Source of the DNA: Minisyncoccales bacterium
GTDB lineage: Bacteria; Patescibacteriota; Minisyncoccia; Minisyncoccales; UBA5738
Reading direction: 5' to 3'
DNA length: 55,413 nucleotides
NCBI GenBank assembly: GCA_049641805.1
Contig: JBARNX010000033.1
Coordinates: 1 to 55,413, forward strand
Positions 27,433-45,179 of this stretch are shown one piece after another (position 1 is the first letter of the stretch; every line of letters starts with the position of its first letter). The notes below the pieces were generated by a model. The model was given only the letters and a program-made list of their open reading frames with translations. It did no database searches and was not told the origin of the DNA. Both the position numbers and the translations under genes were made by a program.

Positions 27433-27616
27433 GAAACTCGAAATATTTGAGGTTCCTTGGGTGCAAATATGCGGAATGAGAAATAGAATGATCCATGAGT
27501 ATTTCAGTGTCGATTTAAACATAGTTTGAGACACTGCGAACAAAAATCTGCCAAGCTTAAGGAAACAAGTCGTTATGATTTTTAAAACGCTCGATAAGCA
27601 GAAAAAACTTTTATGA
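27425..27616 (+). pseudogene. HepT/DUF86 toxin remnant
   Basis: Only the C-terminal part remains: VPWVQICGMRNRMIHEYFSVDLNIV, then TGA at 27527 where the family has Trp, then DTANKNLPSLRKQV in the same frame. Confidence 0.6.
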
Positions 27617-28755
27617 ATCCGAAAATGTATGTAAAGGGGGTGGGGATGACGCGGTTTGACTACGCGCAGAAGCCTTGGTGGGGGTTTGCCTATGACGCGG
27701 CAATCGATGCGTTGAAGGACGCCAAGATGAATATGGCCGGGATTGACGCGATCGCGTTTTCCGCGGTTTCCAGCGCCGCGGGCGGGGAGCATCAGACGCA
27801 CAAGGTTTCTTTGTTGTCGGGATTGTTTAAAACCAATGTGCCGATCATCGAACTGCCGTCGGTTTGCGGCGGCGGCGGAGCGGCGTTCTGGACGGCGCTG
27901 CGTTTGTTGCGCGATGAGGAGTTTAAAAATATTTTGGTGCTGACCGGAGAAAAGCTGGTGGACAACCGCGCCGAAGTAATCACGGACTGGATATTGTCCG
28001 CCGCCGAGCGAGCGATTGAGCAAACCGAAGGGTTGTTGTTTCCGGCGCAAAACGCGCTGGTTTACCAGCAATACTGCAAAAAATACGGCGGTTCGCACGA
28101 AGATTTGGAGCTGATCGCGTTCAAGAATCACCAGAACGCGGTGGCCAACCCCAAAGCCTATTATTACAAGCGGCCGGTGACGATGGAAAAGATCAAAGAT
28201 TCGCCGGTGGTGGCCGATCCGCTGCGGCTGATGGATTGCTCGCTGTCGGTCAACGGCGGCGCGGCGGCGATCGTTTCCAAAGACGAAACCGATATTGAAA
28301 TCATCGGTTCGGGATTTGCCACCGATTACATTCTGACTTTTGAGCGCGATGATATGACCCATTTCCGCGCCACGCAACTGGCGGCAAAAAAAGCGTTCGC
28401 GACGGCAGATTTAACGCCCGGCGACATTGATGTTGCCGAAATCCACGACGCGTTCACTTCCGTGGAGCTGTTGTCATATGAAGACATCGGTTTTGCCGCG
28501 CCGGGCAAAGGGGGAGAGCTGATCCGCTCGGGCAAGATCAATATGGGCGGCCAAATGCCCATCAATCCGTCAGGAGGCTTGAAAGCCAAGGGCCATCCGA
28601 TCTCGGCCACAGGCCTGGCGCAGATCTATGAGATCACCAACCAGCTGCGCGGCAATTGCGCTGAACGCCAAGTTAAAAACGCCAAAATCGGTCTGACCCA
28701 TAACATCGGCGGCGCCGGCGGCTCGGTTACCGTCCACATCTTGAAAAAGAATTAA
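27613..28755 (+). CDS. Thiolase, SCP-x/archaeal acetoacetyl-CoA thiolase type
   Basis: PSVCGGGGAAF (Cys nucleophile), EIHDAFTSVELLSYEDIGF, INPSGGLKAKGHPISATG, NIGGAG. Confidence 0.8.
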   Translation: MNPKMYVKGVGMTRFDYAQKPWWGFAYDAAIDALKDAKMNMAGIDAIAFSAVSSAAGGEHQTHKVSLLSGLFKTNVPIIELPSVCGGGGAAFWTALRLLRDEEFKNILVLTGEKLVDNRAEVITDWILSAAERAIEQTEGLLFPAQNALVYQQYCKKYGGSHEDLELIAFKNHQNAVANPKAYYYKRPVTMEKIKDSPVVADPLRLMDCSLSVNGGAAAIVSKDETDIEIIGSGFATDYILTFERDDMTHFRATQLAAKKAFATADLTPGDIDVAEIHDAFTSVELLSYEDIGFAAPGKGGELIRSGKINMGGQMPINPSGGLKAKGHPISATGLAQIYEITNQLRGNCAERQVKNAKIGLTHNIGGAGGSVTVHILKKN

Positions 28756-28846
28756 CCCACATCTCCGTAGGGGCGATTCCGTGTAATCGCCCGAGTGCGA
28801 ATTTTGTTTTTTGAATTTGGCGATTTTTTGATACGAAGTCAGCTTC

Positions 28847-28874
28847 TTGACACTATATAACTATTGTATATACT
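28847..28874 (+). promoter_or_regulatory. Sigma70-like promoter with an operator-like inverted repeat
   Basis: TTGACA, 16 nt, TATACT. The tataac/gttata arms overlap it. Confidence 0.4.
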
Positions 28875-28904
28875 ATGGTTATATATGTTAAGCTGCCTGA
28901 AATT

Positions 28905-29180
28905 ATGAAAACTTTGATCAATATAAAAACTGACCGCGATGTGAAAATCAGCGCGCAAAAACTGGCCAAGGAATTGGGATTGTCTTTGAGCGCGGTGGTT
29001 AACGCTTATTTGAAGCAATTTATTCGCACGAAGGCGGTTAATTTTTCGGTTACGCCGCAGATGTCGCCGGAATTAGAAAAACTTTTGGGAAAAATCGATT
29101 ATGATATTGCCCGGGGCAAGAATCTGTCGCCGGCAATGAGTTCCGGGAAAGATATTGATAAATATTTTGAATCTTTGTAA
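28905..29180 (+). CDS. DinJ/RelB-family antitoxin (paralog)
   Basis: MKTLINIKTDRDVKISAQKLAKELGLSLSAVVNAYLKQF. Confidence 0.65.
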   Translation: MKTLINIKTDRDVKISAQKLAKELGLSLSAVVNAYLKQFIRTKAVNFSVTPQMSPELEKLLGKIDYDIARGKNLSPAMSSGKDIDKYFESL

Positions 29181-29185
29181 TTTCC

Positions 29186-29446
29186 ATGGAAATAATATTT
29201 CATCGGAATTTTGAAAAACAAATTTTAAAATTGAAACCGGCGGAAAGAGAAAGATTGAGATTGCGCTTGAAGGTGTTTTTAAACGATCCGTTTGATCGGC
29301 AATTGAACAATCATCCGTTGAAAGGCGATCGGGCCGATTTTCACAGTATCAATATCGGCGGCGATTTGCGCGCGGTATTCAAGCAGATTGATACTGATAA
29401 ATGTATTTTTACCGAGATCGGTACCCACGGCGCATTGTATTCGTAA
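29186..29446 (+). CDS. RelE/YafQ-family toxin (paralog)
   Basis: HRNFEKQILK...NNHPLKGDRADFHSINIGGDLRAVF...GTHGALY. Confidence 0.7.
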   Translation: MEIIFHRNFEKQILKLKPAERERLRLRLKVFLNDPFDRQLNNHPLKGDRADFHSINIGGDLRAVFKQIDTDKCIFTEIGTHGALYS

Positions 29447-29480
29447 AGTGTCCATATGTCCAACATTTGGACACTTTACG
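29442..29480. terminator. 13-bp hairpin cgtaaagtgtcca/tggacactttacg
   Basis: Overlaps the toxin stop codon. Shares its core with 12374-12404. Confidence 0.45.
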
Positions 29481-29526
29481 CATTGATCGGCGCATTTGAA
29501 CAAAAAAACAACCAATTTGTCGGGGC

Positions 29527-30066
29527 CTAACCCCTGCTCCGCCCGCTGGCTTCGCAGGGGTTAGTCCCTTGTCTGGATGTAGTGATAAAATATTTTTTCA
29601 GGGCTAATCTGAAGATGGTTTTGTTTTTTAGGTTGGCTTCGATGAGGCAGATGCCTTTGTTGGGGAAGCCGTAGACGATTAGGGTTTTGGGTTTTGATTC
29701 CAGAACCGCGGGGATGACCAAAAGGTCTTCTTCGCCTTCGACGCAGACATTGATTTTTTCTTTAATCGCGTTTTTGACCGCGAGCCAGGCATTTTTTTGA
29801 ATGGTGCCGGCGGGATTATCAACTATTGTGGCGCACTCATGTTTTTGGGCGAAAACTTTTCGCTGGACTTTTTTGTCGAAAATTTTAATATCGGATTGCA
29901 AATGGTGCGAGCAATAATCGCCCACGGTGATTACGGTCTTGTAATTATTTTTATCCAATATCCTTTGATAGCGGGCTTTGGTTTTTTCTTCGGTTCCGAA
30001 TATCGGTTTGCCCCAGATTTTTTGCATTTTTGCGCGCGATTTTTCCGGTAAAAAATAAGTTCTCAT
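29527..30066 (-). CDS. DUF359/UPF0218, archaeal-type GTP-dependent dephospho-CoA kinase family
   Basis: VGDYC..., IFDKKVQRK, VDNPAGTIQ, VEGEEDLLVIPAVL and VYGFPNKGI match family hallmarks. The last 13 codons run through GC hairpin 29527-29564. Confidence 0.7.
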   Translation of the reverse strand: MRTYFLPEKSRAKMQKIWGKPIFGTEEKTKARYQRILDKNNYKTVITVGDYCSHHLQSDIKIFDKKVQRKVFAQKHECATIVDNPAGTIQKNAWLAVKNAIKEKINVCVEGEEDLLVIPAVLESKPKTLIVYGFPNKGICLIEANLKNKTIFRLALKKYFITTSRQGTNPCEASGRSRG

Positions 30067-30084
30067 TTGCAAAAATTTAAAGTT

Positions 30085-30186
30085 GGAAAATCAAAATGGA
30101 AAATGACAGTTTAAAATGTTAAAGTATCCGAAAGCAAACATTTTTAATGTTACATTGTCATTTTTATTTTTGATATTTACATTTTA
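30085..30186 (+). repeat. AT-rich palindromic intergenic element (copy f)
   Basis: Arms ggaaaatcaaaatggaaaatgaca / tgtcatttttatttttgatatttacatttt. Centre aaaatgttaaagtatccgaaagcaaacattttt. Confidence 0.7.
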
Positions 30187-30242
30187 AATTAAAAGTAGGA
30201 GAATAGAGGTCTATAATTGAACATACTAACGATAAAATATTT

Positions 30243-31271
30243 ATGGCTTTTTATCAATGCTTACAATGCAAGCGGCGGTGGGAATATCCTTTGGCGGAAT
30301 GCCCTTATTGTTTTGCGCCGCTGGAAAAAATGGAAAGCCGGAACGCGCGGGTGATCGGTTCGGTCAAAGTGGCGATTCCAACGCTTTTGCATCCCAATGT
30401 GCCGTATTATATCTTGCTTTTACGGGACGAAGCGGGGAACACATGGGGTTACAAATCGGAAATTGGATACCAAACCGGCGATGAATTGAAATTGGAGCCG
30501 GACGCAAATGCCGTGGCGATATGGCGCGTGAAATACGATATTCAAGAAGGAATCGAAAAAGTTTTGGAATTGGCCGGAGGCATCAATGTCGGCAAAGGTT
30601 CAAAAATCGTGGTTCTGCCCACATTGGCCAAGCCAAGCCACGGCTATTTCCGCGACAACACATCGCCGGAATTTTTGAGCGCGGTTTTACAAATCATTTT
30701 AAAACGGGGCGTGGAGGCCAAAGATATTACTGTCGCCGGGCAAAGTTTTGACGATTTGCCGGTGGTTGCGGTTGCGCAAAAGTCCGGACTTATCGATGCC
30801 GGGATGAAATTCGGCGTGCAGGCGCTTGATTTGGCGATGGGCGAATTCGAGCGGACGGGTAATTTCGAGATTTCAAAAACAATAATGGGCGCCGACCTAG
30901 TGATCAATATGGCGATGGAAAAGATCGGTGCGGCGAGCGCGACCGATAATCTGTTCCGGGTTTTGAAAAAAGAAAATTATCTGGGGCAGAAGTATCTATT
31001 ATCGGACGCGGAAATTGCCGCGGCTCTGGAACCGATCCTGGATAAAATGATCGTGATCGGCGAAGCGGAAAATGTCCAGCGGTCAAACAAACTGACCACT
31101 TTTATGGGATTGGTTTTGGCTGCCAAATCCGGTCGAAATCTGGACCGGGTTTTCAACGAGGCGGCTCAGTCGTTTAAAATGCCGGAAACAATAAAAGATA
31201 TTTCCGCCGCCGGCATACCGGTGGCGGGGAGAAGCGTGAAGGAGGTGCAATATCAAGCGGAAATTTTTTAA
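30243..31271 (+). CDS. DUF35 (zinc-ribbon plus OB-fold) fused to a DUF362-like domain
   Basis: N-terminus CLQCKRRWEYPLAECPYC plus an OB segment. C-terminus IVVLPTLAKPSHGYFRDNTSPEFLSAVLQIILKRG... Confidence 0.6.
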   Translation: MAFYQCLQCKRRWEYPLAECPYCFAPLEKMESRNARVIGSVKVAIPTLLHPNVPYYILLLRDEAGNTWGYKSEIGYQTGDELKLEPDANAVAIWRVKYDIQEGIEKVLELAGGINVGKGSKIVVLPTLAKPSHGYFRDNTSPEFLSAVLQIILKRGVEAKDITVAGQSFDDLPVVAVAQKSGLIDAGMKFGVQALDLAMGEFERTGNFEISKTIMGADLVINMAMEKIGAASATDNLFRVLKKENYLGQKYLLSDAEIAAALEPILDKMIVIGEAENVQRSNKLTTFMGLVLAAKSGRNLDRVFNEAAQSFKMPETIKDISAAGIPVAGRSVKEVQYQAEIF

Positions 31272-31272
31272 G

Positions 31273-31420
31273 TTTAAAATTGAAAAATCAAAATTAAAAA
31301 TGACAATGCAAAATTGAAAATGTTGGAATACCGGCATTTTACATTTTTTCCGCCAAAGGACGGATGCGTCTACGGCGCAAATTGTAATTTTAATTTTTGA
31401 TATTTTAATTTTTAATTAAA
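31273..31420 (+). repeat. AT-rich palindromic intergenic element (copy g)
   Basis: Fills the whole stop-to-ATG spacer. Carries the GC double mini-hairpin 31349-31379. Confidence 0.75.
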
Positions 31421-31423
31421 GCT

Positions 31424-32176
31424 ATGGCAAACATATTTGACGGGAAAGTTGTTTTGATTACCGGTTCGTCGCAGGGAATCGGGCGCGCGGTCGCGTTGAA
31501 ATTCGCCTCATTGGGCGCGAAAATCGCGTTCAACGATATCGCGATGCAGGAGGAAAATTTAAAAGTGGCGGTTGAGGAAGCCAAAAAAGCGGGCGCCCCG
31601 GACGCGAAATATTTTATGGCCGATGTTTCCAAATACGACGATGTGGAAAAAATGATGGCCGCGATTCAAACCGAATTCGGCCGCTTGGATGTTCTGGTGA
31701 ACAATGCCGGGATCGCCAAGGATCGCACTTTGGCGAAAATGACCGTTGAAGAATGGCAACGCGTGATCGACATCAATTTAACCAGCGTCTTTAATTGTTC
31801 AAAGACCGCGTTGCCGATGCTGATTGCCAATCAGGGCAATATCGTGAGTATGTCGTCTTTCTCGGGATTGCGGGGCAATTTTGGGCAAACCAATTATACC
31901 GCGGCCAAAGCCGGTATCATTGGATTTACCAAGACGCTTTCGAAAGAAGTCGGTAAATTCGGCGTGCGCGTCAACGCGGTGGCGCCGGGGTTTATCGAGT
32001 CGAAAATGACCGAGGCTATGCCCGAAGATATCAAGGCGATGGTGAAAAAATTGACTTCATTGGCGCGGACCGGCAAACCCGAAGAAGTGGCCAATGTAAT
32101 CGCGTTTCTGTCTTCGAGCGAAGCGAGTTTTGTGACTGGAGACATTGTCAATATCGACGGCGGTTTGTGGCTGTGA
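31424..32176 (+). CDS. 3-oxoacyl reductase, FabG-like SDR
   Basis: TGSSQGIGRA, NNAG, YTAAKAG. Confidence 0.8.
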   Translation: MANIFDGKVVLITGSSQGIGRAVALKFASLGAKIAFNDIAMQEENLKVAVEEAKKAGAPDAKYFMADVSKYDDVEKMMAAIQTEFGRLDVLVNNAGIAKDRTLAKMTVEEWQRVIDINLTSVFNCSKTALPMLIANQGNIVSMSSFSGLRGNFGQTNYTAAKAGIIGFTKTLSKEVGKFGVRVNAVAPGFIESKMTEAMPEDIKAMVKKLTSLARTGKPEEVANVIAFLSSSEASFVTGDIVNIDGGLWL

Positions 32177-32229: not shown

Positions 32230-33444
32230 ATGGATAATATTTTAGACGATATTCTTAAAAACATCAGCGAACGGGCGCCGCATACGCCATTCTCGGTCGA
32301 GTTTTGGGATGAAACAAAGAAACAATATGGGCGGGGGACGGAAAAATTCAAGATTATCTTTCGTTGCGAAAGTGCGTTAAAGAAGTTTTTGTCGGCCGGT
32401 ACATTGGGTTTCGGCGAGGAATATATGGCCGGCAATATCGAGGTTGCCGGAGATATGCAAGCGATGCTGGGGCTGTACGATCATTGGCGTGATCTTAACC
32501 GGAATATCTCGCCGGGGGTAAAGTTCCGGGTGCTGGCAAACGCGATTTTGACGCGCGCGACAGTCCGCAATTCAAAAAAGAATATCAGGCATCATTACGA
32601 TATCGGCAATGATTTTTATTCTTTATGGCTTGATTCGGCGATGGCTTACTCCTGTGCGTATTTTAAAAACGGTTCCGACAGCTTGGAAATTGCGCAAGCG
32701 AACAAATATGACCATATCTGCAAGAAACTTCGCTTGCGAGCTGGAGAGAAACTGCTGGATATCGGTTGCGGTTGGGGAGGGATGATGTTTCACGCCGCAA
32801 AAAATTATGGCGCCGATTGTACCGGCTGTACACTGTCGGAAACTCAATATCGATATGTTAACGAAAAAATCGAAAAAGAAGGTTTGGGCGGCAAGATTAA
32901 AATTTTTTTAAAAGACTATCGCCGGGTGGAGGGGGTTTTCGATAAATCGGTTTCCGTCGGAATGTTCGAGCATGTGGGGAAAAATTATTATTCGGAATTT
33001 TTTTCAATGGTTAAAAGAACGCTTAAACCTTCGGGTATCGGCGTTTTGCACACCATCGGTTCCCGATCCGGGGGAGCGACAGATCCATTTATCGCCAAAT
33101 ACATTTTTCCGGGCGGGTTTGTTCCGACGCTGGCAATGGTCGCCGACGCGATGAATAAAGCCGAGTTGGTTTTTTATGATGTCGAAGACTTGCGGATGCA
33201 TTATGCCAAAACGCTTGATCTTTGGATCGCTAATTTTGAAGCGGCCGGCGCCGAGGTGAAGAATGTTTTGGCCCGAGAAATAAAAGATCGGACTCGGGCC
33301 GAGGAATTCATCCGGATGTGGCGGCTTTATTTGAATGGCAGCGCGGTTGCGTTCAAAAATGCCGGCAATCGATTGTATCAGATAACTTTTACCAATGGAG
33401 TCAACAATAATTTGCCGCTGACTCGGGATTATCTGTATTCATAA
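32230..33444 (+). CDS. Cyclopropane-fatty-acyl-phospholipid synthase family methyltransferase
   Basis: HYDIGNDFY and LLDIGCGWGGM SAM motif. Length is as expected for the CMAS family. Confidence 0.8.
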   Translation: MDNILDDILKNISERAPHTPFSVEFWDETKKQYGRGTEKFKIIFRCESALKKFLSAGTLGFGEEYMAGNIEVAGDMQAMLGLYDHWRDLNRNISPGVKFRVLANAILTRATVRNSKKNIRHHYDIGNDFYSLWLDSAMAYSCAYFKNGSDSLEIAQANKYDHICKKLRLRAGEKLLDIGCGWGGMMFHAAKNYGADCTGCTLSETQYRYVNEKIEKEGLGGKIKIFLKDYRRVEGVFDKSVSVGMFEHVGKNYYSEFFSMVKRTLKPSGIGVLHTIGSRSGGATDPFIAKYIFPGGFVPTLAMVADAMNKAELVFYDVEDLRMHYAKTLDLWIANFEAAGAEVKNVLAREIKDRTRAEEFIRMWRLYLNGSAVAFKNAGNRLYQITFTNGVNNNLPLTRDYLYS

Positions 33445-33580: not shown

Positions 33581-35107
33581 ATGCTATACACAAAAGAACA
33601 GATCAAGCAAATAATTCCTTACGACGATCCTTTTCTGTGGGTGGATGAAATTGAGAAAATAGAAGGGGATGTTATCGTCGGTTATAAACAAACTTTATCG
33701 CTGGATCCTTATTTTAAGGGTCATTTCGTTGATTTTCCGATTATGCCGGGAGTTTTGGTGGTTGAAGGTGTCGCCCAGACCGGTACGCTTTTGTTGCGGA
33801 CAAAATTGGGCGACAGCCACAAACAAAAGCACTTGCTGGCTTATCAGGTCCGGGGAGCGATGTTTTATTCGCCGATACTTCCCGGCGACCGGATAAAATA
33901 CCGGGTCCAGCTCTTGGGGGTTTATAATTCAAAGATCGCTAATTTTGTCGGCGAGGCGTATGTGGGCGGCGTTCTTAAATGCGAGGTCAGATTTTCCGTG
34001 GCGGTTATGGATAAAGAAGAAATGAAGCGGAATTTTGTTCGCCGCGACGCGGTTCAGCCGGTTTCGGCGATGAATTTAGCGCAAAAGACCGGTGCGAAAC
34101 TTTATGAGCTGCCGCCGTTAAAAATCGCGCATTGGACGGCTAAATATCCGATCATTCAGGGCGGAATGGCGGTGCGGGTGTCGTTGCACAATTTGGCGGG
34201 GAATGTGGCCAAAGAGGGCGGTGTGGGGCTTGTGGCCGCTTCCGGGATGAGAGATCCCGAAGAATTGAAAAGCGAAATCAGCCAGGCGCGGAAAATTGCC
34301 GGCGCCGGCGGAGTGATCGGCATAAATATTATGGGGGTGGTCGGCCGTTTCCAGCAATTGGTCCAGGCCGCGATCGAGGAAAAAGTTGATTTAATCGTTC
34401 AAGGCGCGGGTTTCCGAAAAGATATTTTTGAAATGGCGCGCGACAGCAACACCCCGATATTTTCCCTGGCTTCTTCGGCCAAAGTCGCGCAGAAAGCGCA
34501 GGATGCGGGTGCGGCGGCAATCATTGTCGTGGGCGCGGACGCGGCCGGACACCTTGGATTTCCGCACGGAATTCCTTTCCGTAAAACAATTGATATTTTA
34601 AAAGAAGTCGTGGCTACGGGCATCAAGGTCCCGTTGATTGCGGCGGGCGGGATTTTCACCGGTGCCGATATCGTGGAAATGATGCGCGCGGGCGCGGTGG
34701 GAGTGCAGTTGGGAACACGCTTCGTTTCCACCGAAGAATGCGATGCCAACATCAAATTCAAAGAAGCGCATATTAACGCCAAAAAGGAAGACAGTATCAT
34801 CGTCCATTCGCCGGTTGGTTTGCCGGGCCGCGCGATCCGTACGGAGTTTTCGGACAAGGTTGAGATTGGAACCGCGCCCAAGCCTGATCCCGCCGAATGC
34901 CAGGGTTGTATCGGGCCGGTTTGTGACAAGAGTTATTGTATTTTGAAAGCGCTGGAGAACGCGCGCAAAGGCGATGTCGAGAACGGTATTGTTTTTGCCG
35001 GGTCAAATGTTTGGCGCGTGAAAGAAATTACCACAGTCAAAAAATTAATCAAAGAACTGGTCGAAGAAGCCAACGCGATTCTGGCGAAAGAGCCATTGAT
35101 TATTTAA
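33581..35107 (+). CDS. FabZ-like hotdog dehydratase fused to an NMO/FabK-type enoyl reductase
   Basis: N-terminus PFLWVDEI...GHFVDFPIMPGVLVVEGVAQ. C-terminus KYPIIQGGMAVRVS...GADAAGHLGF. Confidence 0.75.
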   Translation: MLYTKEQIKQIIPYDDPFLWVDEIEKIEGDVIVGYKQTLSLDPYFKGHFVDFPIMPGVLVVEGVAQTGTLLLRTKLGDSHKQKHLLAYQVRGAMFYSPILPGDRIKYRVQLLGVYNSKIANFVGEAYVGGVLKCEVRFSVAVMDKEEMKRNFVRRDAVQPVSAMNLAQKTGAKLYELPPLKIAHWTAKYPIIQGGMAVRVSLHNLAGNVAKEGGVGLVAASGMRDPEELKSEISQARKIAGAGGVIGINIMGVVGRFQQLVQAAIEEKVDLIVQGAGFRKDIFEMARDSNTPIFSLASSAKVAQKAQDAGAAAIIVVGADAAGHLGFPHGIPFRKTIDILKEVVATGIKVPLIAAGGIFTGADIVEMMRAGAVGVQLGTRFVSTEECDANIKFKEAHINAKKEDSIIVHSPVGLPGRAIRTEFSDKVEIGTAPKPDPAECQGCIGPVCDKSYCILKALENARKGDVENGIVFAGSNVWRVKEITTVKKLIKELVEEANAILAKEPLII

Positions 35108-35250
35108 AATTAAAAAATCAAAATGAAAAATGACAATGCAAAATCGCAAAATTTGCAAAACGCGACATTTTAACATTTTTTCCGCCAAAGGACGGATGCG
35201 CCTACGGCGCAAATTGTCATTTTGATTTTTGATATTTACATTTTTAATTT
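35108..35250 (+). repeat. AT-rich palindromic intergenic element (copy h)
   Basis: Same arms as copies g and i. GC double mini-hairpin at 35181-35211. Confidence 0.75.
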
Positions 35251-35255
35251 GGAAT

Positions 35256-37549: not shown

Positions 37550-39083
37550 AAAAATTCTTATTGCCAACCGGGGAGAAATCGCTTTGCGCATTTTGCGGAC
37601 ATGCCGCGAAATGGGCATTAAAACCGTGGTTTTGTGCCCGATGCCCGGTCAGGAAAAAAATTTCCTGGAAACATCATTGGCCGATGAATTTTATTATCTT
37701 GAAAAAGAAGGTTCGGCGGGGTACCTGGATAAAGAAAAGATAATTTCGATCGCCAAAAAGGCCAAAGTCGATGCCATTCACCCGGGTTATGGTTTTTTGT
37801 CGGAAAACTGGCAATTCGCTTTGATGTGCGATCGCAGCCGGATAAAATTCATCGGGCCGCATTTTAAGACCTTGCGGACTTTACAGGACAAAATCGAGGC
37901 CAAAAAAATCGCCAAAAAAATCGGCATTCCCACGGTTCCGGCCTCCGACCAATCGATAAAAAGCAAAAAAGATTTGATCAAATGGGCTGACCGCATCAAG
38001 CCGCCGTTTATTATCAAGGCCCAGCGGGGCGGTGGCGGGATGGGTATTCGCGTGGTTAACGGCCAGATGAATTATGAGGAAATGATGACGCTGTCGCTAG
38101 GGGTCCAGCGGCAGATCGCGGGCGCTTTCGACGATATTGATTTTTTTCTGGAAAAATATTTGCCCGAAGTCAAACATATCGAATTCCAAGTTCTGGGCGA
38201 CGGCCGCAAGGCGGTTCATTTGGGCGAGCGCGAGTGTTCGATCCAGCGCCGGTTCCAGAAAATGGTGGAAGAATCGCCTTCCGCGGCGATTGACGATCGT
38301 TTGCGCGCCGAAATGGGCGCTTGGGCGGTTAAGATCGCGCAATATTTGAGTTATCGCGGCGCGGCCACGATAGAGTTTTTGCTGGATAAAGACAAAAATT
38401 ATTATTTTATGGAAGTGAATCCGCGGATTCAGGTTGAGCATCCGGTTACCGAGGCGGTTACCGGAATCGATATCGTTGAGCAGCAGATCAGGATCGCCGA
38501 AGGCAAACAGCTGTCGTTCGGGCAAGAAAGCGTTTATCAGAGCGGATGGGCTATTGAGGTGCGCGTTAACGCCGAAGACCCGCAAAAAAATTTCATTCCT
38601 TCGCCGGGCGCGGTTTCAAAATACATCCCTCCGCAAGGCCAGGGGGTGTTTGTGCACAGTTTTTTGCAGGACGGCCAGGAGGTTTATCCCTATTTTGATT
38701 CGATGCTGGCAAAGGTGATCGCGTACGGCAAGGATCGGGATTCGGCAATTACCAAGTTGCGCCGCGCGCTTTCCGAAACCGTTATCGAGGGTGTTGCCAC
38801 TACGATTCCATTTTTCAAATTATTGTTGGAAAAAGATGATTTCATCAACGGTAATTTCTATACTAACTTCATTGAGAAAAGCGGCATTGTGCAAGAATTG
38901 ATGCTCAAGCCGTATTTACAGAAAAAAGTCGTTTGCGGGCGCAAGGAGATCGAAGAACAGGCGATTGCCGATATCGCGCGCGCGATATATCGGGAAATAA
39001 AAAACTTCAACGGATCTTTGAACGATGAGCCGGCGGTTTCAAAATGGGTTTTATCCGGGCGGATGTCAAACCCCGAAGAATAA
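37539..39083 (+). CDS. accC: Biotin carboxylase
   Basis: KILIANRGEIALRI, GYGFLSEN, ATP-grasp region, EVNPRIQVEHPVTE. Confidence 0.85.
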   Translation: MEIKKILIANRGEIALRILRTCREMGIKTVVLCPMPGQEKNFLETSLADEFYYLEKEGSAGYLDKEKIISIAKKAKVDAIHPGYGFLSENWQFALMCDRSRIKFIGPHFKTLRTLQDKIEAKKIAKKIGIPTVPASDQSIKSKKDLIKWADRIKPPFIIKAQRGGGGMGIRVVNGQMNYEEMMTLSLGVQRQIAGAFDDIDFFLEKYLPEVKHIEFQVLGDGRKAVHLGERECSIQRRFQKMVEESPSAAIDDRLRAEMGAWAVKIAQYLSYRGAATIEFLLDKDKNYYFMEVNPRIQVEHPVTEAVTGIDIVEQQIRIAEGKQLSFGQESVYQSGWAIEVRVNAEDPQKNFIPSPGAVSKYIPPQGQGVFVHSFLQDGQEVYPYFDSMLAKVIAYGKDRDSAITKLRRALSETVIEGVATTIPFFKLLLEKDDFINGNFYTNFIEKSGIVQELMLKPYLQKKVVCGRKEIEEQAIADIARAIYREIKNFNGSLNDEPAVSKWVLSGRMSNPEE

Positions 39084-39095: not shown

Positions 39096-39479
39096 ATGAA
39101 ATTCAAATTTAACAATCAAGGCAAAGATTATGATGTGGAAATCATTGACCAAGGCGAACAAGCCATGAAGGTTGTTGTTAACGGCAAAGAGTTTTCGTAC
39201 GGCTCGTTTGACGCGGTTCAGGCGGCGGCGGTACCGCAGGCAATCTTGCCCAAAAGAGACCTTTCGTCAAAAGAGGTCAAAGCGGTTTTGGCCGGGACGA
39301 TTTCGGAAATATCCGTTAATGCAGGCGATATCATAAAATCGGGACAAAAACTGCTTACGCTTTCGGCGATGAAAATGGAAAATGAAATTTTATCGGAAAC
39401 CGACGGCAAAATCAAGGAAATTAAAGTCGCCAAAGATCAAAAAGTCAAAGAAGGCGATATCCTTATTGTTCTGGCATAA
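39096..39479 (+). CDS. Biotin carboxyl carrier protein
   Basis: AMKMENEI biotinyl-lysine motif. Confidence 0.75.
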   Translation: MKFKFNNQGKDYDVEIIDQGEQAMKVVVNGKEFSYGSFDAVQAAAVPQAILPKRDLSSKEVKAVLAGTISEISVNAGDIIKSGQKLLTLSAMKMENEILSETDGKIKEIKVAKDQKVKEGDILIVLA

Positions 39480-39484: not shown

Positions 39485-40015
39485 ATGGATTTAGATATTA
39501 AAAAATTCGATAATCTGGATTCTACCAACAGCAAGGCCAAGAAGCTGGCGAATGGGGGAAGCGGAGCTTGGACGGTCGTGGTCGCGAAAGAACAGAATGG
39601 CGGTTACGGGCGAAAAGGCAATGCCTGGTATTCGCCGGACGGCGGACTGTACTTTTCCGTGATTTTGCCCAAAAGCAATGTTGAGGATCTGCAAATTTTA
39701 ACGATCCTGGCGGCGTTTTCAGTGGCTCAAACCATCAAAGACCGATTCGGGGTGGAACCGTTCGTGAAACTGCCCAACGATGTGTATCTTAACGGCAAAA
39801 AGATTTGCGGAATTCTAACGGAAAATATTATATCAGGCGAAGTCAAATCGTCGGTGATCGGGATCGGCGTGAATACGAATATCGGGGCATTTCCAATGGA
39901 GCTGGCGAATGCGACTTCGCTTGAGATCGAACTGGGCAAGATGATTGACAACAGTCTAATTTTAGAGCAGAGTATAAGCCAGTTGCAAAAGATATTCAAG
40001 GCCATCGGCCAATAA
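39485..40015 (+). CDS. Biotin--protein ligase, catalytic core only
   Basis: GGYGRKGNAW and KLPNDVYLNGKKICGILTE. No HTH and no C-terminal domain (176 aa). Confidence 0.7.
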   Translation: MDLDIKKFDNLDSTNSKAKKLANGGSGAWTVVVAKEQNGGYGRKGNAWYSPDGGLYFSVILPKSNVEDLQILTILAAFSVAQTIKDRFGVEPFVKLPNDVYLNGKKICGILTENIISGEVKSSVIGIGVNTNIGAFPMELANATSLEIELGKMIDNSLILEQSISQLQKIFKAIGQ

Positions 40016-40167
40016 AATTTAAAGTTTAAAAATCAAAATGGAAAATGACAATTAAAAGTTAAAAATGGGAAAATTTTAAAATTATTTTATTTTAAATTTT
40101 AAATTGTCATTATCGGTTTATTAAAACTGCCTGCCAAACTGATTTTTGATATTTACATTTTTAATTA
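40016..40167 (+). repeat. AT-rich palindromic intergenic element (copy i)
   Basis: Carries the 28-nt GC module (inverted) at 40114-40141. Confidence 0.75.
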
Positions 40168-40173
40168 ACTACT

Positions 40174-41724
40174 ATGAATTTTGAAAAAGAAATCGAACAA
40201 TTAAATAAAAATTTGGAGGGTTTGGAAAATCCCGAATTGATCGAAAAACAGCACCAAAAAGGGAAGATGGCGGCGCGGGAAAGGATTGCCGCGCTGATTG
40301 ATCCGGAAACATTCGTGGAGTTTGATCCGTTCGCGGAAACAAGATTTTCCCGCTTTGGGTTGGATAAAAAGAGAGCCGCGGGCGATGCGGTGATCGCCGG
40401 TTTTGGCAAAATCAGCAACCGTCCGGTTTGCGTTTACAGCCAGGATTTTACCAAGGTGGGCGGCGGTTCGCTGGGCGAAATGCACGGCAAAAAGATTATT
40501 AAAGTAATTGATCGGGCGCGTAAAATCGGTTGTCCGATAATCGGCATCATTGATTCGGGCGGCGCGCGGATTCAGGAAGGTGTCGCCAGTCTGGACGGTT
40601 ACGCGGGGATATTTAACGCGATGGTTAAGGCTTCGGGGGTGGTGCCGCAAATCAGCGTTATTGTCGGGCCGTCGGCCGGCGGAGCGTGCTACGCGCCGGG
40701 ATTATCGGATTTTGTTTTTATGGTTGACGGCGTTTCGCAAATGTTTATCACCGGGCCGGAAGTGATTAAAAAGGTTACCGGCGAGGAGGTATCGTTTGAC
40801 GCGCTGGGGGGAGCCAACGCTCATTGTGCCAAAAGCGGTTGCGCCCAATTCCGCTGTGCCGGCGAGAAAGACTGTTTTGCCGGCGTTAAAAAACTTTTGG
40901 GTTATTTGCCACAGAACAATATGGATGACGCGCCGCGGTCAAAAAGCATTTTGGCGGAACTGTTCGAAAAAGAGGACAATGCCAAACTTTTAGACATTGT
41001 TCCCGAAGACAGCGGCAAGGGCTATGATATGAAGGCGGTGATTGAAGAGATTTTCGATAAAAATTCATTTTTTGAGATTCAACCGGAATTCGCGGTTAAC
41101 GCGGTCGTTGGTCTGGCCCGTTTGGGCGGTTATGTTACGGGCGTGGTGGCCAATCAGCCCAAAACGATGGCCGGAGTTTTGGATATTGATTCTTCGGACA
41201 AAATCGCGCGGTTTGTGCGTTTGTGCGACTCCTTTAATATCGCATTGGTTAATTTGGTTGATACTTCCGGATATCTTCCCGGCGCCAATCAGGAACATAA
41301 CGGGATCATCCGTCATGGCGCCAAGGTTTTGTACGCCTATGCCGAAGCCAGCGTGCCTAAGATCAGCGTGATTATCCGTAAGGCATTCGGCGGCGCGTAT
41401 ATCGCCATGGCCAGCCGCGCTTTGGGTTATGATTGCGTCCTTGCCTGGCCGGGGGCGCAGATCGCGGTGATGGGGCCGGAGCAGGCGGTGGGAATTATCT
41501 ATCGCCGCGAATTGGCGGAGCGCAATGACGCGCCCAAATTCGAACAGGAAAAAATCAACGAAATGAAACTGCTGGGCAGCGCTTTCGAAGCGGCAAAAAT
41601 GGGCCAGGTGGATATGGTAATCAATCCCAAAGATACCCGGACGATCCTGACCAAACTGCTGGAATCGCTATTGACCAAGCGCGAAGAAAAGATTTCCAGG
41701 AAGCACGGGAATACGCCACTGTAA
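40174..41724 (+). CDS. Acyl-CoA carboxylase carboxyltransferase (PccB/MmdA type)
   Basis: 516 aa. GGGSLGEMHGKKI, DSGGARIQEG, RKAFGGAYIAM. Confidence 0.85.
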   Translation: MNFEKEIEQLNKNLEGLENPELIEKQHQKGKMAARERIAALIDPETFVEFDPFAETRFSRFGLDKKRAAGDAVIAGFGKISNRPVCVYSQDFTKVGGGSLGEMHGKKIIKVIDRARKIGCPIIGIIDSGGARIQEGVASLDGYAGIFNAMVKASGVVPQISVIVGPSAGGACYAPGLSDFVFMVDGVSQMFITGPEVIKKVTGEEVSFDALGGANAHCAKSGCAQFRCAGEKDCFAGVKKLLGYLPQNNMDDAPRSKSILAELFEKEDNAKLLDIVPEDSGKGYDMKAVIEEIFDKNSFFEIQPEFAVNAVVGLARLGGYVTGVVANQPKTMAGVLDIDSSDKIARFVRLCDSFNIALVNLVDTSGYLPGANQEHNGIIRHGAKVLYAYAEASVPKISVIIRKAFGGAYIAMASRALGYDCVLAWPGAQIAVMGPEQAVGIIYRRELAERNDAPKFEQEKINEMKLLGSAFEAAKMGQVDMVINPKDTRTILTKLLESLLTKREEKISRKHGNTPL

Positions 41725-42271: not shown

Positions 42272-43567
42272 ATGTTTGAGCAATTATTGGTTGAGCAAAA
42301 TCGGCAGTGGCGCGGCGGCCTTTTGGAGGCCGGTTTTGAGCGTGGAATCACCAATGATTTAATGGGGTATGTTTCCATCAAGCACATTGTCGCGTTGCTG
42401 GGCGTGCGGCGGTGCGGAAAATCCACTGTTCTGAAGCAAATCATTAATCGCTTGATTGGCCAAAAAGTTCCGCCGGAGAATATCTTGTTTTTGAATTTGG
42501 AAACGCCGCTTTTGGAAACATATAAAAACGATCCGGTCAATTTGCAAAAGATATACGAGGAATATATCGCGTTGGCGAATCCCAAAAAGGGGCGGATATT
42601 TGTCTTTTTGGATGAAGTTCAATTTTTTCCCAAATGGCAGGTTTTTGTTAAAAACCTTTATGAAAAAGGCGGGGTGAAATTTTTCATCACCGGATCCAAT
42701 TCGCAGCTGCTTTCCGCGGAGATGGCGACATTGCTTTCCGGCCGCCAAATTATAAAAAAAATTTATCCATTCAATTTCAAAGAAATTGTTGCCATTAAAA
42801 AAATTGATATAAGCGATAATCTTGCTATTGCAAAAAATCGCGCGAGTTTGATCAAAGTTTGCCAAGAGTATCTGAAAATGGGCGGCTTTCCCGAAGTGGT
42901 TTTGGAGCAAAACGATGATATTAAACGGGAATTGCTTGTCAATTATTATCGTAGCATTTTGTATCAAGATATCGCGCCTCGTTTTGAAATCAAGAAAACC
43001 AAAGAGGTGGAGGGTTTGCTATTGTACCTTTTTTTAAATATTGGACAGGGATACAGCTATAATTCATTGGGCAAGTTTTCCCAAATCCAAGGCAAAACCG
43101 CCAAAGAATATGTTGGATTTTTTGAAAAATCGTTTTTGTTGGCCGAAATTTCGAATTATCAATATTCTTTGAAAAAACAGGAAAATTATCCCAAAAAGGT
43201 TTATGCCATTGATAATGGTTTTATGGAAACTGCATCGTTTGCTTTCAGCGAAAATTACGGCCGGCTTTTTGAGAATGCGGTGTTTTTCAAGCTGATTGCC
43301 GATGGCAAAAAAATATATTATTACAGGAACTCGTTTGAATGTGATTTTGTTATAAAGGAAAAAACAAAAATAATGACCGCGATTCAGGCAACGAAAAAAA
43401 TTGACGCAAGCAATGAAAAAAGAGAAATGAGCGGGATTTTGGCGGCGATGGATAAATTCAATTTAAAAAGCGGGCTGATAATTACTGAAACGCAAGAAGA
43501 AGTTAGGACGATTGGCGATAAAATGATAAAAATAATGCCTTTGTATAAATGGCTTTTGGAGCCGTAA
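42272..43567 (+). CDS. AAA+ ATPase with a DUF4143-type C-terminal domain
   Basis: Walker A GVRRCGKST, Walker B IFVFLDEVQ, C-terminal ECDFVIK...AIQATKK. Confidence 0.7.
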   Translation: MFEQLLVEQNRQWRGGLLEAGFERGITNDLMGYVSIKHIVALLGVRRCGKSTVLKQIINRLIGQKVPPENILFLNLETPLLETYKNDPVNLQKIYEEYIALANPKKGRIFVFLDEVQFFPKWQVFVKNLYEKGGVKFFITGSNSQLLSAEMATLLSGRQIIKKIYPFNFKEIVAIKKIDISDNLAIAKNRASLIKVCQEYLKMGGFPEVVLEQNDDIKRELLVNYYRSILYQDIAPRFEIKKTKEVEGLLLYLFLNIGQGYSYNSLGKFSQIQGKTAKEYVGFFEKSFLLAEISNYQYSLKKQENYPKKVYAIDNGFMETASFAFSENYGRLFENAVFFKLIADGKKIYYYRNSFECDFVIKEKTKIMTAIQATKKIDASNEKREMSGILAAMDKFNLKSGLIITETQEEVRTIGDKMIKIMPLYKWLLEP

Positions 43568-43570
43568 AAA

Positions 43571-43903
43571 ATGAAAATAATTAAGGAAAAATTCAAGACA
43601 GATATAAAAAACCGGCTTTACTGGGGGAGGGTTTATTTCATCGCGGATAATCGCGCCGCCAAAACCAAGTTATTTTGGGCGATGTCGTTTGAATATGTGC
43701 GGCGACAGCTTTTGGCCGAAACATGGAAGGATGAGGATGTCGATCATTTGCTCAACAAGGAAGTGGTAAATCGCGCCAAAGAAACCAAACGCAAGATATT
43801 CAACCGTCCGGTGAAATTTTCCGTGAATGGAATTGATCAAAAAGAGGATTCCGATTTGATGCTTTATTTGGAGGAAAGGGACAAAATCGACCAACATGGC
43901 TGA
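43571..43903 (+). CDS. Hypothetical protein
   Basis: 110-aa ORF, 3 nt after the ATPase gene. Confidence 0.35.
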   Translation: MKIIKEKFKTDIKNRLYWGRVYFIADNRAAKTKLFWAMSFEYVRRQLLAETWKDEDVDHLLNKEVVNRAKETKRKIFNRPVKFSVNGIDQKEDSDLMLYLEERDKIDQHG

Positions 43904-43917
43904 CGCGGGCGCAAGGT

Positions 43918-44053
43918 TGTTCTTTTCGTAACGGGACTCACGCAAATTTTAGAAATTTTGCGCGAAGCAATTTATTGTTATAAAAAGACCGGTTGTTTAT
44001 GGCGGGGAAGATCGCAAAATTTCTAAAATTTGCGAATCATTACGAAAAGAACA
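43918..44053. repeat. 136-bp nested inverted repeat
   Basis: Outer arms tgttcttttcgtaa/ttacgaaaagaaca. Inner arms cgcaaattttagaaattttgcg/cgcaaaatttctaaaatttgcg. Confidence 0.7.
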
Positions 44054-44075
44054 GCTTCGCTATTTTTTGGAAAAA

Positions 44076-45179
44076 ATGAAGAAGATTTTGATAATTTCAA
44101 TGAAGACCGGGTGGGGGCACATCAAGGCCGCGCAGGCGCTGGAGGAATACGCTAAAAACAATCTGCCGGATTTCAAAATCAGCCATGTCGATCTCTGCGA
44201 GATCGAGCCCGGGCTCGGAAAATTTTTCGAGATTTTTTACGATATTACCAACGACCGTTTGCCCACGGTCTGGGGCGCGGTTTACGAAACTTTCGACAAG
44301 GAAATGGTTTCTTTGGCGTTCCGCAAGGCCAACGGATTTCAGAGATTGTTCCGGCGGCGCATTGGCCGCTATTTAAGAAGGCAAGCTGTGGACGGAGTTA
44401 TTTTCACCAATGTTATTCCCGCGCCCATGGTGGCGCCGGTGTGCCGCGAAATTTATCCTCAAATACCGCTGGCGGTTGTGGTAACCGATTACCACGGCCA
44501 CTCTTATTATAATGTGCCGCTGATTGACCGGTATTTCGTGGCGATTCCCGAAGTTAAGAACGATTTGATCCGGGTGGGCGTGGACGAACAGAAGATTGCC
44601 GTTACCGGCATACCCGTCGGCCAAAAATTTTACGGTCGTTACGATCAAAACGGTTTGGAACGCAAGCTTGGGTTTGGCAATGGTTTTAAAACGGTAACAT
44701 TCATCAGCCGCTTGTCAAAGGATTTCGTGCTTCCGGTTATCAAAAGACTGCTGGAACGCGAAGAAAAAATAAATTTGATAATGGTTTGCGGCGGCAATAA
44801 TGATCTTTATAAAAAAATCAAAAATGAGGTCCCGCCGCGAAAAAATTTTAAACTGGTTAATTGGACCAACCGCATCGATGAATATATGAAGATTTCCGAC
44901 GCGGTGATCAGCAAGCCCGGGGGATTGGTGATTTCGGAGTGTTTGGCGCTTGGCAGGAAGATAATTATGACCGATCCGATTCCGGGTCAGGAAGAACGCA
45001 ACGCGGAGTTTATTGCCAAATACGGCTATGGCGCGTTGGCGCTTACGCCGGATGAAATTGTTGCGGCGGTTGAAAAAATATTGATTATGCCGCGCGCCGG
45101 ACAGGGAGCGGCGCGGTCCGATTCCTGTGCGGAAATTTTAAAATACTTCTTGAATAATCCGGGAGCGGCTTCCAAATAA
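44076..45179 (+). CDS. GT28 diacylglycerol glycosyltransferase (MGDG synthase/UgtP-like)
   Basis: KKILIISMKTGWGHIKAAQAL N-terminus and a GT28 C-terminal domain. Confidence 0.7.
   Translation: MKKILIISMKTGWGHIKAAQALEEYAKNNLPDFKISHVDLCEIEPGLGKFFEIFYDITNDRLPTVWGAVYETFDKEMVSLAFRKANGFQRLFRRRIGRYLRRQAVDGVIFTNVIPAPMVAPVCREIYPQIPLAVVVTDYHGHSYYNVPLIDRYFVAIPEVKNDLIRVGVDEQKIAVTGIPVGQKFYGRYDQNGLERKLGFGNGFKTVTFISRLSKDFVLPVIKRLLEREEKINLIMVCGGNNDLYKKIKNEVPPRKNFKLVNWTNRIDEYMKISDAVISKPGGLVISECLALGRKIIMTDPIPGQEERNAEFIAKYGYGALALTPDEIVAAVEKILIMPRAGQGAARSDSCAEILKYFLNNPGAASK

Follow-up and report, generated by a model that had tools for sequence, protein, structure and literature searches.

A candidate CoA-based, carrier-protein-independent pathway for fatty acids and membrane lipids encoded by a gene cluster of a Minisyncoccales bacterium

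The 55,413-bp contig JBARNX010000033.1 (assembly GCA_049641805.1), analysed over its whole length and referred to below as the window, belongs to a Minisyncoccales/Paceibacteria metagenome-assembled genome (MAG) of the Candidate Phyla Radiation (CPR) and carries a cluster of lipid-synthesis genes. We propose, with moderate confidence, that this cluster encodes a dissociated fatty-acid synthase (FAS) that works on coenzyme A (CoA) thioesters independently of acyl carrier protein (ACP) and that is coupled to the assembly of phospholipids and glycolipids. The CoA-based, ACP-independent core of this proposal had been put forward in an earlier interpretation made from the DNA alone (the sequence-only reading), and it is now supported by the loss of ACP-docking residues from enzymes that keep their catalytic residues, and by the gene order of 11 further CPR loci. 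Every gene listed in that reading proved to be a real open reading frame (ORF), lying where it had been placed and having a strong family match in Pfam or NCBIfam. The contig also encodes bacterial L20, IF3 and SmpB together with a tmRNA, and an identical cluster is carried by assembly GCA_049302415.1.

Genes of the window were called from an ORF listing combined with Pfam and NCBIfam scans. The Pfam scan covered 66 window ORFs and revealed no PP-binding, ketoacyl-synthase, Acyl_transf_1 or ACPS domain, in agreement with the earlier claim that the hallmarks of type II FAS (FASII) are absent from the 55 kb. For comparison, a genome collection was searched with the FabZ::NMO fusion protein of the cluster, yielding 80 loci that were each examined with ±10 kb of surrounding DNA. 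Of these, 69 were conventional fab clusters from Firmicutes and other anaerobes, which served as controls, and 11 were CPR loci, which together with the window make up the 12 CPR loci counted below. ACP genes were sought with a six-frame ACP hidden Markov model (HMM), and phmmer queries made from E. coli seeds and from proteins of the window served to count the other genes.

The best score of the ACP HMM in the window and the 14 CPR loci scanned with it was E=1.8, whereas 40 of the 69 control loci were positive and had ACP right beside the NMO gene. FabD (38/69), FabF (40/69) and FabH (33/69) were likewise found in the controls and in none of the 12 CPR loci. Conversely, a thiolase (10/12) and a fusion of a Zn-ribbon/OB module with DUF362 (ZnR::DUF362; 11/12) were detected in CPR loci and in none of the controls, and biotin carboxylase, carboxyltransferase and PlsC were present in 12/12 CPR loci versus 0–4 of the 69 controls. 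A phmmer search with E. coli AcpS matched nothing in the CPR loci, nor in any of the 69 controls. Gene order, which the sequence-only reading had suggested comparing among relatives, is kept across the 11 CPR loci in the absence of ACP, ketosynthase (KAS) and FabD: thiolase-(DUF359)-ZnR::DUF362-(BioY)-reductase-(cyclopropane synthase)-FabZ::FabX-FabK-PlsC-biotin carboxylase-biotin carboxyl carrier protein (BCCP)-biotin-protein ligase-carboxyltransferase, with fusion proteins that are 62–89% identical.

These counts bear directly on the possibility of an ordinary FASII that is dispersed over the genome, in which ACP, AcpS, FabD and a ketosynthase would lie elsewhere, the cluster would contribute no more than reductive steps, carboxylase and acyltransferases, and the thiolase pair would serve another purpose. 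The FabG-, FabZ-, FabK- and FabX-like proteins of the cluster do belong to ACP-dependent families, malonyl-CoA production suits a KAS-based pathway, our view is limited to 55 kb of the genome, and some Patescibacteria MAGs carry acpP (PMC12455944). Nevertheless, we consider a dispersed FASII quite unlikely, because ACP, FabD and KAS sit within such clusters in 33–40 of the 69 controls versus none of the 12 CPR loci, because the thiolase and ZnR::DUF362 hold conserved operon positions, because AcpS and FabD were not found in related genomes by Probst et al. (PMC7242380), and because the ACP-docking residues are gone from three of the enzymes.

The first of these three enzymes is the FabG-like 3-ketoacyl reductase (31424–32176, +), a short-chain dehydrogenase/reductase (SDR) that scores 284 bits against the NCBIfam FabG model (cutoff 296) and passes the subfamily model NF009466. 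Its catalytic S138/Y151/K155 are intact in the CPR proteins. FabG residues R129 and R172 dock ACP (PMC13293336, PMC8007833), and in the CPR proteins R172 is replaced by F/L (12/12) and R129 by Q (8/12), whereas both positions are R/K in 39/39 control FabGs; position K127 is basic in 0/12 CPR proteins versus 39/39 controls. The second is the FabZ-like dehydratase, which makes up residues 1–145 of a fusion with a FabX-like NMO domain (residues ~175–508; 33581–35107, +; Pfam FabA and NMO), resembles FabZ by Foldseek (TM 0.9) and keeps the catalytic H58/E72. The ACP-docking residues of FabZ, R110 (described as "indispensable") and K129 (PMC5143422), are Y/F and Y/H, respectively, in 12/12 CPR proteins, versus R/K and K in 7/7 control FabZs. 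The third is the FabX-like domain itself. Of the helix α7 residues that contact ACP in FabX (I156, K159, R160 and R164; PMC8626469), K159 is D/E in 10/12 CPR proteins versus K/R in 53/69 controls, and I156 is K/R in 12/12 versus hydrophobic in controls. In addition, R160 is changed to A/S/M and R164 falls in a gap in the CPR proteins, with the proviso that the α7 alignment could be one residue off.

In a pathway without ACP, docking residues would be free to change while catalytic ones stay, and this is the pattern seen. Judged from these alignments, the combination of lost docking and kept catalytic residues in the FabG-, FabZ- and FabX-like enzymes amounts to strong circumstantial evidence, but not proof, that ACP is dispensable here. 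Ketoreduction, dehydration and enoyl reduction would then proceed on acyl-CoA, by means of the FabG-like SDR, the FabZ-like hotdog protein and a FabK-like flavoenzyme.

The condensing step would fall to the thiolase (27613–28755, +; Pfam Thiolase_C_1 4e-47), an archaeal/SCP2-type protein that displays Cys85 in a CGGG motif, an HDAF motif and a GHP histidine, and that is 72–100% identical over 120 CPR homologues. Its best PDB matches are 7yvy, 4yzo and 6esq/6et9, with archaeal thiolases closest, and 6esq/6et9 (1.6e-51) is the M. thermolithotrophicus thiolase of the thiolase/HMG-CoA synthase (HMGCS)/DUF35 complex. We propose that this thiolase is the condensing enzyme of the pathway and that it would perform Claisen condensation in place of KAS, FabD and ACP.

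Next to the thiolase in 10/12 CPR loci is ZnR::DUF362, in the window a 342-aa protein (30243–31271, +) that the sequence-only reading had labelled a DUF35-DUF362 fusion. By sequence the DUF35 part of this label did not stand, as Pfam and NCBIfam gave no DUF35 match and a profile search of PDB sequences returned noise only, but at the fold level it did. The AlphaFold (AF2) model built with 40 homologues (pLDDT 91) contains a Zn-ribbon/OB module at residues ~1–100, with Cys6, Cys9, Cys20 and Cys23, and Foldseek matched these first ~100 residues to DUF35 partners of thiolase-family enzymes (6ok1, 7pxp, 5m3k, 6esq and 3irb), comprising ChsH2, BbsA, PhlB, the M. thermolithotrophicus DUF35 protein and SSO DUF35. 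The remainder of the protein resembles LarA-type racemases (7s91/6d6z, 2e-6) and matches Pfam DUF362 at 3.3e-5 (24.4 bits versus a gathering threshold of 24), while distant members of the family match DUF362 at 1e-29 to 1e-48. A LarA-like fold fits the grouping of DUF362 and LarA_N in a single Pfam clan, CL0471 (PMC11770544); no larB/C/E-like genes were seen in the Pfam scans of the window. The family is rare, with 328 members among 1.84 billion representative proteins (E≤1e-3).

Based on the predicted fold, we propose that the Zn-ribbon/OB module docks the neighbouring thiolase, which would thereby be held by ZnR::DUF362. In protein P0426, a DUF35-like Zn-ribbon/OB module is joined to a 3-hydroxyacyl-CoA dehydrogenase instead of DUF362, and about 10 more matches of 353–367 aa align to the module at their N-terminus only. 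The P0426 fusion suggests that the module tethers pathway enzymes to the thiolase, and that its general purpose is to dock enzymes onto thiolases.

The DUF362 domain has some 15 invariant polar residues, among which Ser168 in a GQSFD motif, and such a cluster implies a specific ligand or active site. This might point to a non-canonical carrier, with intermediates attached not to ACP but to some other protein, such as DUF362 via Ser168. The fusion of DUF362 to a thiolase-docking module, the apparent tethering of a dehydrogenase by the same module elsewhere, and the gene for a CoA-biosynthesis-type kinase (DUF359) that adjoins ZnR::DUF362 would all suit such a carrier. However, the DUF362 fold is LarA-like and resembles that of an enzyme, not that of a helical carrier, the window scans revealed no phosphopantetheinyl transferase, and the arrangement is without precedent, so that we regard it as highly unlikely. 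The adjoining DUF359 gene (29527–30072, −; Pfam DUF359 6e-24), which was missing from the earlier gene list, lies divergently inside the cluster between the thiolase and Zn-ribbon genes and is part of the conserved core, being found at the same position in 6/12 CPR loci and 0/69 controls. Its best NCBIfam match is the GTP-dependent dephospho-CoA kinase of an archaeal family, a weak match (64 bits versus a cutoff of 300) on which the assignment rests, as a literature search for DUF359 and dephospho-CoA kinase found nothing.

The NMO half of the FabZ fusion had been taken for the enoyl reductase of the cycle, but this was not borne out. The domain matched FabX before FabK both by PDB sequence search (7e1q/9lt5 at 168 bits versus 7l00 at 135 bits) and by Foldseek (E~1e-26 versus E~1e-22), and its Cys440, Cys443, Cys448 and Cys453, together with the catalytic His324, take places matching the [4Fe-4S] cysteines of FabX. 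Equivalents of the FabX catalytic His182, the FMN-binding Asn99 and the four cysteines are invariant over the 12 CPR proteins and 69 other homologues. The fused NMO was consequently dropped as the enoyl reductase of the cycle. The second NMO protein (35256–36197, +) is a FabK-type enoyl reductase using flavin mononucleotide (FMN; TIGR03151 FabK 343 bits, E 1e-102, cutoff 453), lacks the 4-Cys motif and falls among the Cys-less FabKs from the control fab loci; the FabG-, FabZ- and FabK-like proteins all score under their equivalog cutoffs. Because the fused NMO is FabX-like and the second NMO is a FabK orthologue, the stand-alone FabK is, on sequence grounds, likely to be the enoyl reductase of the cycle. 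A MaoC-type dehydratase and an enoyl-CoA reductase of the medium-chain dehydrogenase/reductase (MDR) type are not what the cluster encodes, since a FabZ/FabA-type hotdog and a FabK-type NMO are found instead.

H. pylori FabX is a dehydrogenase/isomerase yielding cis-3-decenoyl-ACP (PMC8626469). By homology, the most plausible role of the FabZ::FabX-like fusion is to insert a cis double bond, with the [4Fe-4S]/FMN domain acting at medium chain length. As FabZ would hand over the trans-2-enoyl intermediate directly, the isomerase half of the FabX reaction may suffice in an anaerobe. The window domain resembles H. pylori FabX (PDB 7E1Q, PMC8626469) in its NMO TIM barrel, catalytic His, FMN-binding Asn and four [4Fe-4S] cysteines, but differs in being fused to FabZ, in the non-conservation of K159, R160 and R164 and in its cysteine spacing (CX2CX4CX4C versus CX3CX3CX11C), the two being 33–35% identical. 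Since the host is probably an anaerobe, this domain is unlikely to use O2 as its electron acceptor. Cis-unsaturated chains, which a cyclopropane synthase needs, would in turn explain the presence beside the fusion of a cyclopropane-fatty-acid (CFA) synthase family methyltransferase (32230–33444, +; Pfam CMAS 3e-89; NCBIfam CFA models 306–338 bits, under their cutoffs), which would then modify the unsaturated chains. This homologue is present in 3/12 CPR loci.

Two observations outside the window concern FabX-like proteins. In about 65 fab clusters (among loci L014–L083, e.g. L016 9989–10957 and L014 10025–10972), a 4-Cys (CxxCLKxCxxxxC) FabX-like NMO is encoded directly after acpP. The hosts are Firmicutes, Fusobacteria and other anaerobes, many of these clusters also encode a Cys-less FabK, and the 4-Cys protein may be the so far missing enzyme of anaerobic unsaturated-fatty-acid synthesis in these groups. 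In CPR locus L006 (17138–19919), the genes immediately after the carboxyltransferase encode a NuoF-like flavoprotein and the large subunit of an [FeFe]-hydrogenase, and their products are a possible electron source or sink for the [4Fe-4S] FabX-like domain.

Extender units could be supplied by the carboxylase module of the cluster. This comprises a biotin carboxylase (37539–39083, +; Pfam CPSase_L_D2, Biotin_carb_N and Biotin_carb_C; NCBIfam accC 532–553 bits, under the cutoffs), a BCCP with an AMKM biotinylation motif (39096–39479, +; Pfam Biotin_lipoyl 8e-17), a minimal biotin-protein ligase (39485–40015, +; TIGR00121 birA_ligase 147.9 bits, passing the cutoff of 83.1) and a PccB/AccD5-type acyl-CoA carboxyltransferase (40174–41724, +; Pfam Carboxyl_trans 7e-169; PDB 1vrg and 1xnw at 555–580 bits). 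With BCCP biotinylated by the adjacent ligase, these proteins would convert acetyl-CoA to malonyl-CoA. At the site of S. coelicolor PccB D422 the carboxyltransferase has an Ile (alignment "GGAYIAM"), which we take to be the acetyl-CoA-permissive state, reportedly described by Diacovich and colleagues in 2004, and it is only from this Ile that we infer acetyl-CoA instead of propionyl-CoA as the substrate. The complete carboxylase accompanies the thiolase in every CPR locus, with the ligase alongside and with BioY in relatives, and taken together with the Ile at the D422 position this suggests that malonyl-CoA is probably made and used in CPR hosts.

The extender unit itself could be acetyl-CoA, as in archaeal FAS, or malonyl-CoA with decarboxylation, and the conserved carboxylase would suggest the latter. 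A more specific proposal, which we advance only tentatively, is that Paceibacteria CPR and some DPANN archaea make acyl lipids by decarboxylative condensation with malonyl-CoA on the thiolase/DUF35::DUF362 pair, a condensing machinery not described before that would take the place of KAS, FabD and ACP, in which DUF362 would be the malonyl-handling or decarboxylating part and the FabZ::FabX fusion would provide O2-independent cis-unsaturation.

A number of points weigh against the CoA-based, ACP-independent synthase proposed here. The carboxylase is not explained by a plain archaeal model, because malonyl-CoA would be superfluous for a thiolase that condenses acetyl-CoA. We know of no decarboxylating thiolase of the archaeal/SCP2 type, and a test of one Sulfolobus thiolase with malonyl-CoA was negative. 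The reductive enzymes derive from ACP-dependent families, and because Xanthomonas FabG2, which is without R129/R172, has been reported to be active, the loss of docking residues is suggestive of ACP independence without proving it. The proposal assigns no role to DUF362, in spite of its invariant polar residues. Moreover, the 12 CPR loci are mutually related, so that the counts above are not independent samples, and the absence of carrier genes was read from the 55-kb contig and the ±10 kb loci only. Finally, what the data show directly is gene content, synteny, folds, the kept catalytic residues and the lost docking residues, and from these we infer every substrate, the extender unit, the formation of complexes and the roles of DUF362, DUF359 and the HAD-family protein discussed below.

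Downstream of the reductive genes, the cluster continues into lipid assembly. Two PlsC-family acyltransferases (36206–36874, +; Pfam Acyltransferase 1e-24; HX4D motif HLSHID; and 36884–37549, +; Pfam Acyltransferase 2.5e-24; HX4D motif HLSHMD plus YPEGGR), the second of which is found in 12/12 CPR loci, would put acyl-CoA onto glycerol phosphate. Further on lies a gene for an MGDG-synthase/GT28-type diacylglycerol glycosyltransferase (44067–45179, +; Pfam MGDG_synth 7.5e-19 and Glyco_tran_28_C; NCBIfam diglucosyl-diacylglycerol synthase 159 bits, under the cutoff), directly followed by one for a HAD-IB phosphatase (45181–45828, +; Pfam Hydrolase/HAD; TIGR01488 84 bits, passing the cutoff of 45), an adjacency that is kept in CPR locus L004. 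Judging from this context, the HAD-IB protein is possibly a phosphatidate phosphatase, and the GT28 enzyme would form glycosyl-diacylglycerol, perhaps after its action. The earlier description of the route as "self-contained" went too far, as the window yielded no genes that would supply glycerol-3-phosphate or end and release the growing chain, and no user of malonyl-CoA was pinpointed.

Related CPR clusters contain additional lipid genes. In L010 (4132–5937, 8651–9241 and 17770–19049, with equivalents in L012, L013, L005 and L008), FakA(Dak2)-DegV, BioY and PlsY are added to the cluster. FakA-DegV stands directly 5′ of the thiolase, BioY separates ZnR::DUF362 from the SDR, and the carboxyltransferase is followed by one or two PlsY (plus a DegV in L005). 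None of Fak, BioY and PlsY was found in the window. The positions of FakA-DegV and PlsY at either end of these clusters could indicate that host acyl chains are scavenged, activated, extended, unsaturated or cyclopropanated and re-esterified in an ACP-independent manner, and that no de novo synthesis takes place. SCP2-type thiolases take long chains, which would be compatible with such remodelling, and CPR cells are thought to obtain lipids from their hosts (PMC7242380). On the other hand, neither the window nor the scanned loci of relatives yielded an acyl-CoA synthetase or acyl-phosphate:CoA transferase that could load free fatty acids onto CoA, the thiolase family includes acetoacetyl-CoA-forming enzymes, a carboxylase with a full reductive cycle is what de novo synthesis needs, and the window itself is without Fak or PlsY. 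Remodelling of scavenged chains therefore appears rather unlikely to be the function of the cluster.

A catabolic or fermentative CoA pathway, i.e. β-oxidation or a butyrate-type reduction of acetyl-CoA, would also make use of a thiolase, a ketoacyl reductase, a dehydratase and an enoyl reductase, whose steps lead to butyryl-CoA or, run backwards, make up β-oxidation, and one Parcubacterium has β-oxidation genes (PMC5220378). Nevertheless, the cluster is devoid of acyl-CoA dehydrogenase, electron-transfer flavoprotein, crotonase-type hydratase, 3-hydroxyacyl-CoA dehydrogenase and acyl-CoA ligase, its enzymes are of the FabG, FabZ and FabK types, and they appear to be co-transcribed with PlsC, CFA synthase, the carboxylase and the glycolipid synthase, joined in relatives by PlsY and Fak. 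Both β-oxidation and butyrate fermentation were set aside on these enzyme families and this context, and a role outside lipid synthesis seems to us most improbable.

Among known mechanisms, the one that comes nearest to the synthase proposed here is that of the thiolase/DUF35-based archaeal FAS of Sulfolobus acidocaldarius, which has been reconstituted (Schmerling et al. 2024, bioRxiv 10.1101/2024.07.05.601840). In that system, DUF35 assembles the thiolase, an SDR reductase and a dehydratase, which together with an enoyl-CoA reductase make fatty acids on CoA, acetyl-CoA being used for condensation (10.1101/2024.07.05.601840). The CPR cluster likewise combines an SCP2/archaeal-type thiolase and a DUF35-fold protein with an SDR ketoacyl reductase and a separate enoyl reductase, lacks ACP, FabD and KAS, and would use CoA-thioester intermediates, which are here proposed from the genes. 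It differs in that its dehydratase is of the FabZ type and not MaoC, its enoyl reductase of the FabK type (FMN) and not MDR, its DUF35 module carries DUF362, and its acyl-CoA carboxylase and ligase are integral to the cluster; moreover, it adds a FabX-like domain, a CFA synthase and ester-lipid assembly, and resides in a bacterial host. With the bacterial FASII of Firmicutes (acpP-fabK-fabD-fabG-fabF-fabZ-acc) it shares FabG, FabZ, FabK, a FabX-like protein and a biotin carboxylase system in one co-directional cluster, and in control loci L036, L057 and L075 FabZ is encoded beside a 4-Cys NMO. In contrast to FASII, however, it is without ACP, FabD and FabH/FabF, showed no ACPS domain in the Pfam scans of the window, has lost the docking residues, has a thiolase and ZnR::DUF362 in place of ketosynthases, and has a carboxyltransferase of the PccB type and not AccA/AccD. 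The M. thermolithotrophicus thiolase/HMG-CoA synthase/DUF35 complex (6ESQ/6ET9) is similar in its thiolase, its Zn-ribbon/OB fold and the adjacency of its genes, but no HMG-CoA synthase was found in the window or related loci, DUF362 is extra, and the context is that of fatty acids and not of mevalonate. We rate the CPR system a chimera of the archaeal thiolase/DUF35 principle and FASII-derived reductive enzymes.

Because an archaeal thiolase/DUF35 FAS had already been reconstituted, and because Probst et al. (2020) had raised the idea for CPR, the claim of "a new system" in the sequence-only reading was overstated. Among 675 CPR genomes, Probst et al. (PMC7242380) found that some Nealsonbacteria (Parcubacteria) have FASII homologues, PlsY and PlsC without AcpS, FabD and PlsX, and they noted that an ACP-independent pathway "cannot be ruled out" while de novo synthesis cannot be asserted (PMC7242380). 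A thiolase from their dataset, P0353, is 72% identical to that of the window, and the Nealsonbacteria pathway is almost certainly the same system. Their survey is also the one source of genome-scale support for the general idea. The Fak genes in the clusters of relatives offer an answer to the question raised by these authors, as they point to a source of acyl-phosphate without PlsX. Our literature search for a published ACP-independent pathway in CPR turned up only this account, which is one paragraph long and does not include the thiolase, DUF35::DUF362, FabX, the carboxylase, Fak or residue-level evidence. To that account, the present analysis adds the thiolase/DUF35::DUF362 pair, the FabX reassignment, the conserved carboxylase/biotin module, the Fak/PlsY extension, a DPANN counterpart and the loss of docking at residue level.

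The DPANN counterpart was found via a distant member of the ZnR::DUF362 family, 30% identical, in a Woesearchaeota MAG (GCA_964611745.1, locus L084). Here, 6214–10272 and its flanks encode a hotdog protein, a thiolase, ZnR::DUF362 and a second thiolase, as also seen in L085 and L086, and a simple pattern search did not pick up the CGGG nucleophile motif in the second thiolase of L084. The locus furthermore encodes a biotin carboxylase, a biotin-protein ligase, an enoyl-CoA hydratase, an SDR, a methyltransferase, a bacterial-type glycerol-3-phosphate dehydrogenase and an archaeal-type uS2, while no ACP was found in it and no carboxyltransferase within 8 kb. This indicates that the association of the condensing pair with hotdog, SDR and biotin-carboxylation genes either predates the CPR cluster or was exchanged between both ultra-small groups.

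Individual CPR loci vary in further respects. An ornithine-cyclodeaminase/mu-crystallin family gene lies inside the cluster in L005 (8936–9625) and L039 (10562–11578). The unlabelled ORFs of L039 were checked for an alternative condensing enzyme and turned out to be TyrRS, thioredoxin-reductase-like, Mg-chelatase-like and similar proteins. The carboxyltransferase of L006 (15620–17055) and the biotin carboxylase of L012 (13104–14553) appear to be split over two or three ORFs, reflecting either frameshifts, assembly errors or pseudogenes.

In the window, the cluster is interrupted by a RelB/YafQ pair (28875–29446, +) and by an AAA_14/DUF4143 gene (42272–43567, +), neither of which was in the earlier gene list. 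The former is one of two RelB/YafQ-type toxin-antitoxin pairs that flank the thiolase gene, the other being located at 26296–26836 (−), and the AAA_14/DUF4143 ATPase gene and two small unknown ORFs lie between the carboxyltransferase and the glycosyltransferase. The toxin-antitoxin pairs and AAA_14/DUF4143 genes have no counterparts in CPR loci of greater distance and resemble insertions. The intergenic gaps were confirmed to hold repeats, as the sequence-only reading had stated, by means of a repeat search and alignment of the copies (repeat families D1–D10 and I1–I10). An AT-rich element of ~150 nt occurs in four copies (30072–30243, 31271–31424, about 35098–35256 and 40015–40174), each located directly 5′ of a cluster gene, and partial copies lie near 26200–26280, 27025–27055 and 47258–47310. 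Its conserved terminal inverted arms read …AAAAATCAAAATG.AAAATGACAAT … ATTGTCATTTT.ATTTTTGATATTTACATTTTTAATT, and one copy (about 35098–35256) has a fold energy of −40.6 kcal/mol (z −4.2). The element may be a shared regulatory site or a repeat of the REP/MITE type.

Some 7 kb downstream of the lipid cluster, this bacterium also has a gene for a CarS-like cytidylyltransferase of the CDP-archaeol synthase family (52174–52776, +; Pfam CarS-like 1.9e-30), whose sole PDB match is 5guf, the CDP-archaeol synthase CarS of A. pernix (1e-10). Since this ORF shares sequence with the 3′ part of a PHP-domain ORF on the minus strand (51472–52431), its true start is uncertain. The enzyme possibly catalyses a CDP-diacylglycerol step, with an uncertain link to the cluster.

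CPR bacteria, or Patescibacteria, make up a large share of bacterial diversity and are commonly portrayed as incapable of producing membrane lipids, which is a main argument for their obligate dependence on hosts. If the proposal made here is true, this view would have to be qualified for a large CPR class that has a conserved carrier-free route to fatty acids and lipids, and the related genes in DPANN archaea bear on the "lipid divide" as well. The cluster would in that case also offer engineers a compact toolkit for CoA-based FAS, consisting of few and soluble proteins.

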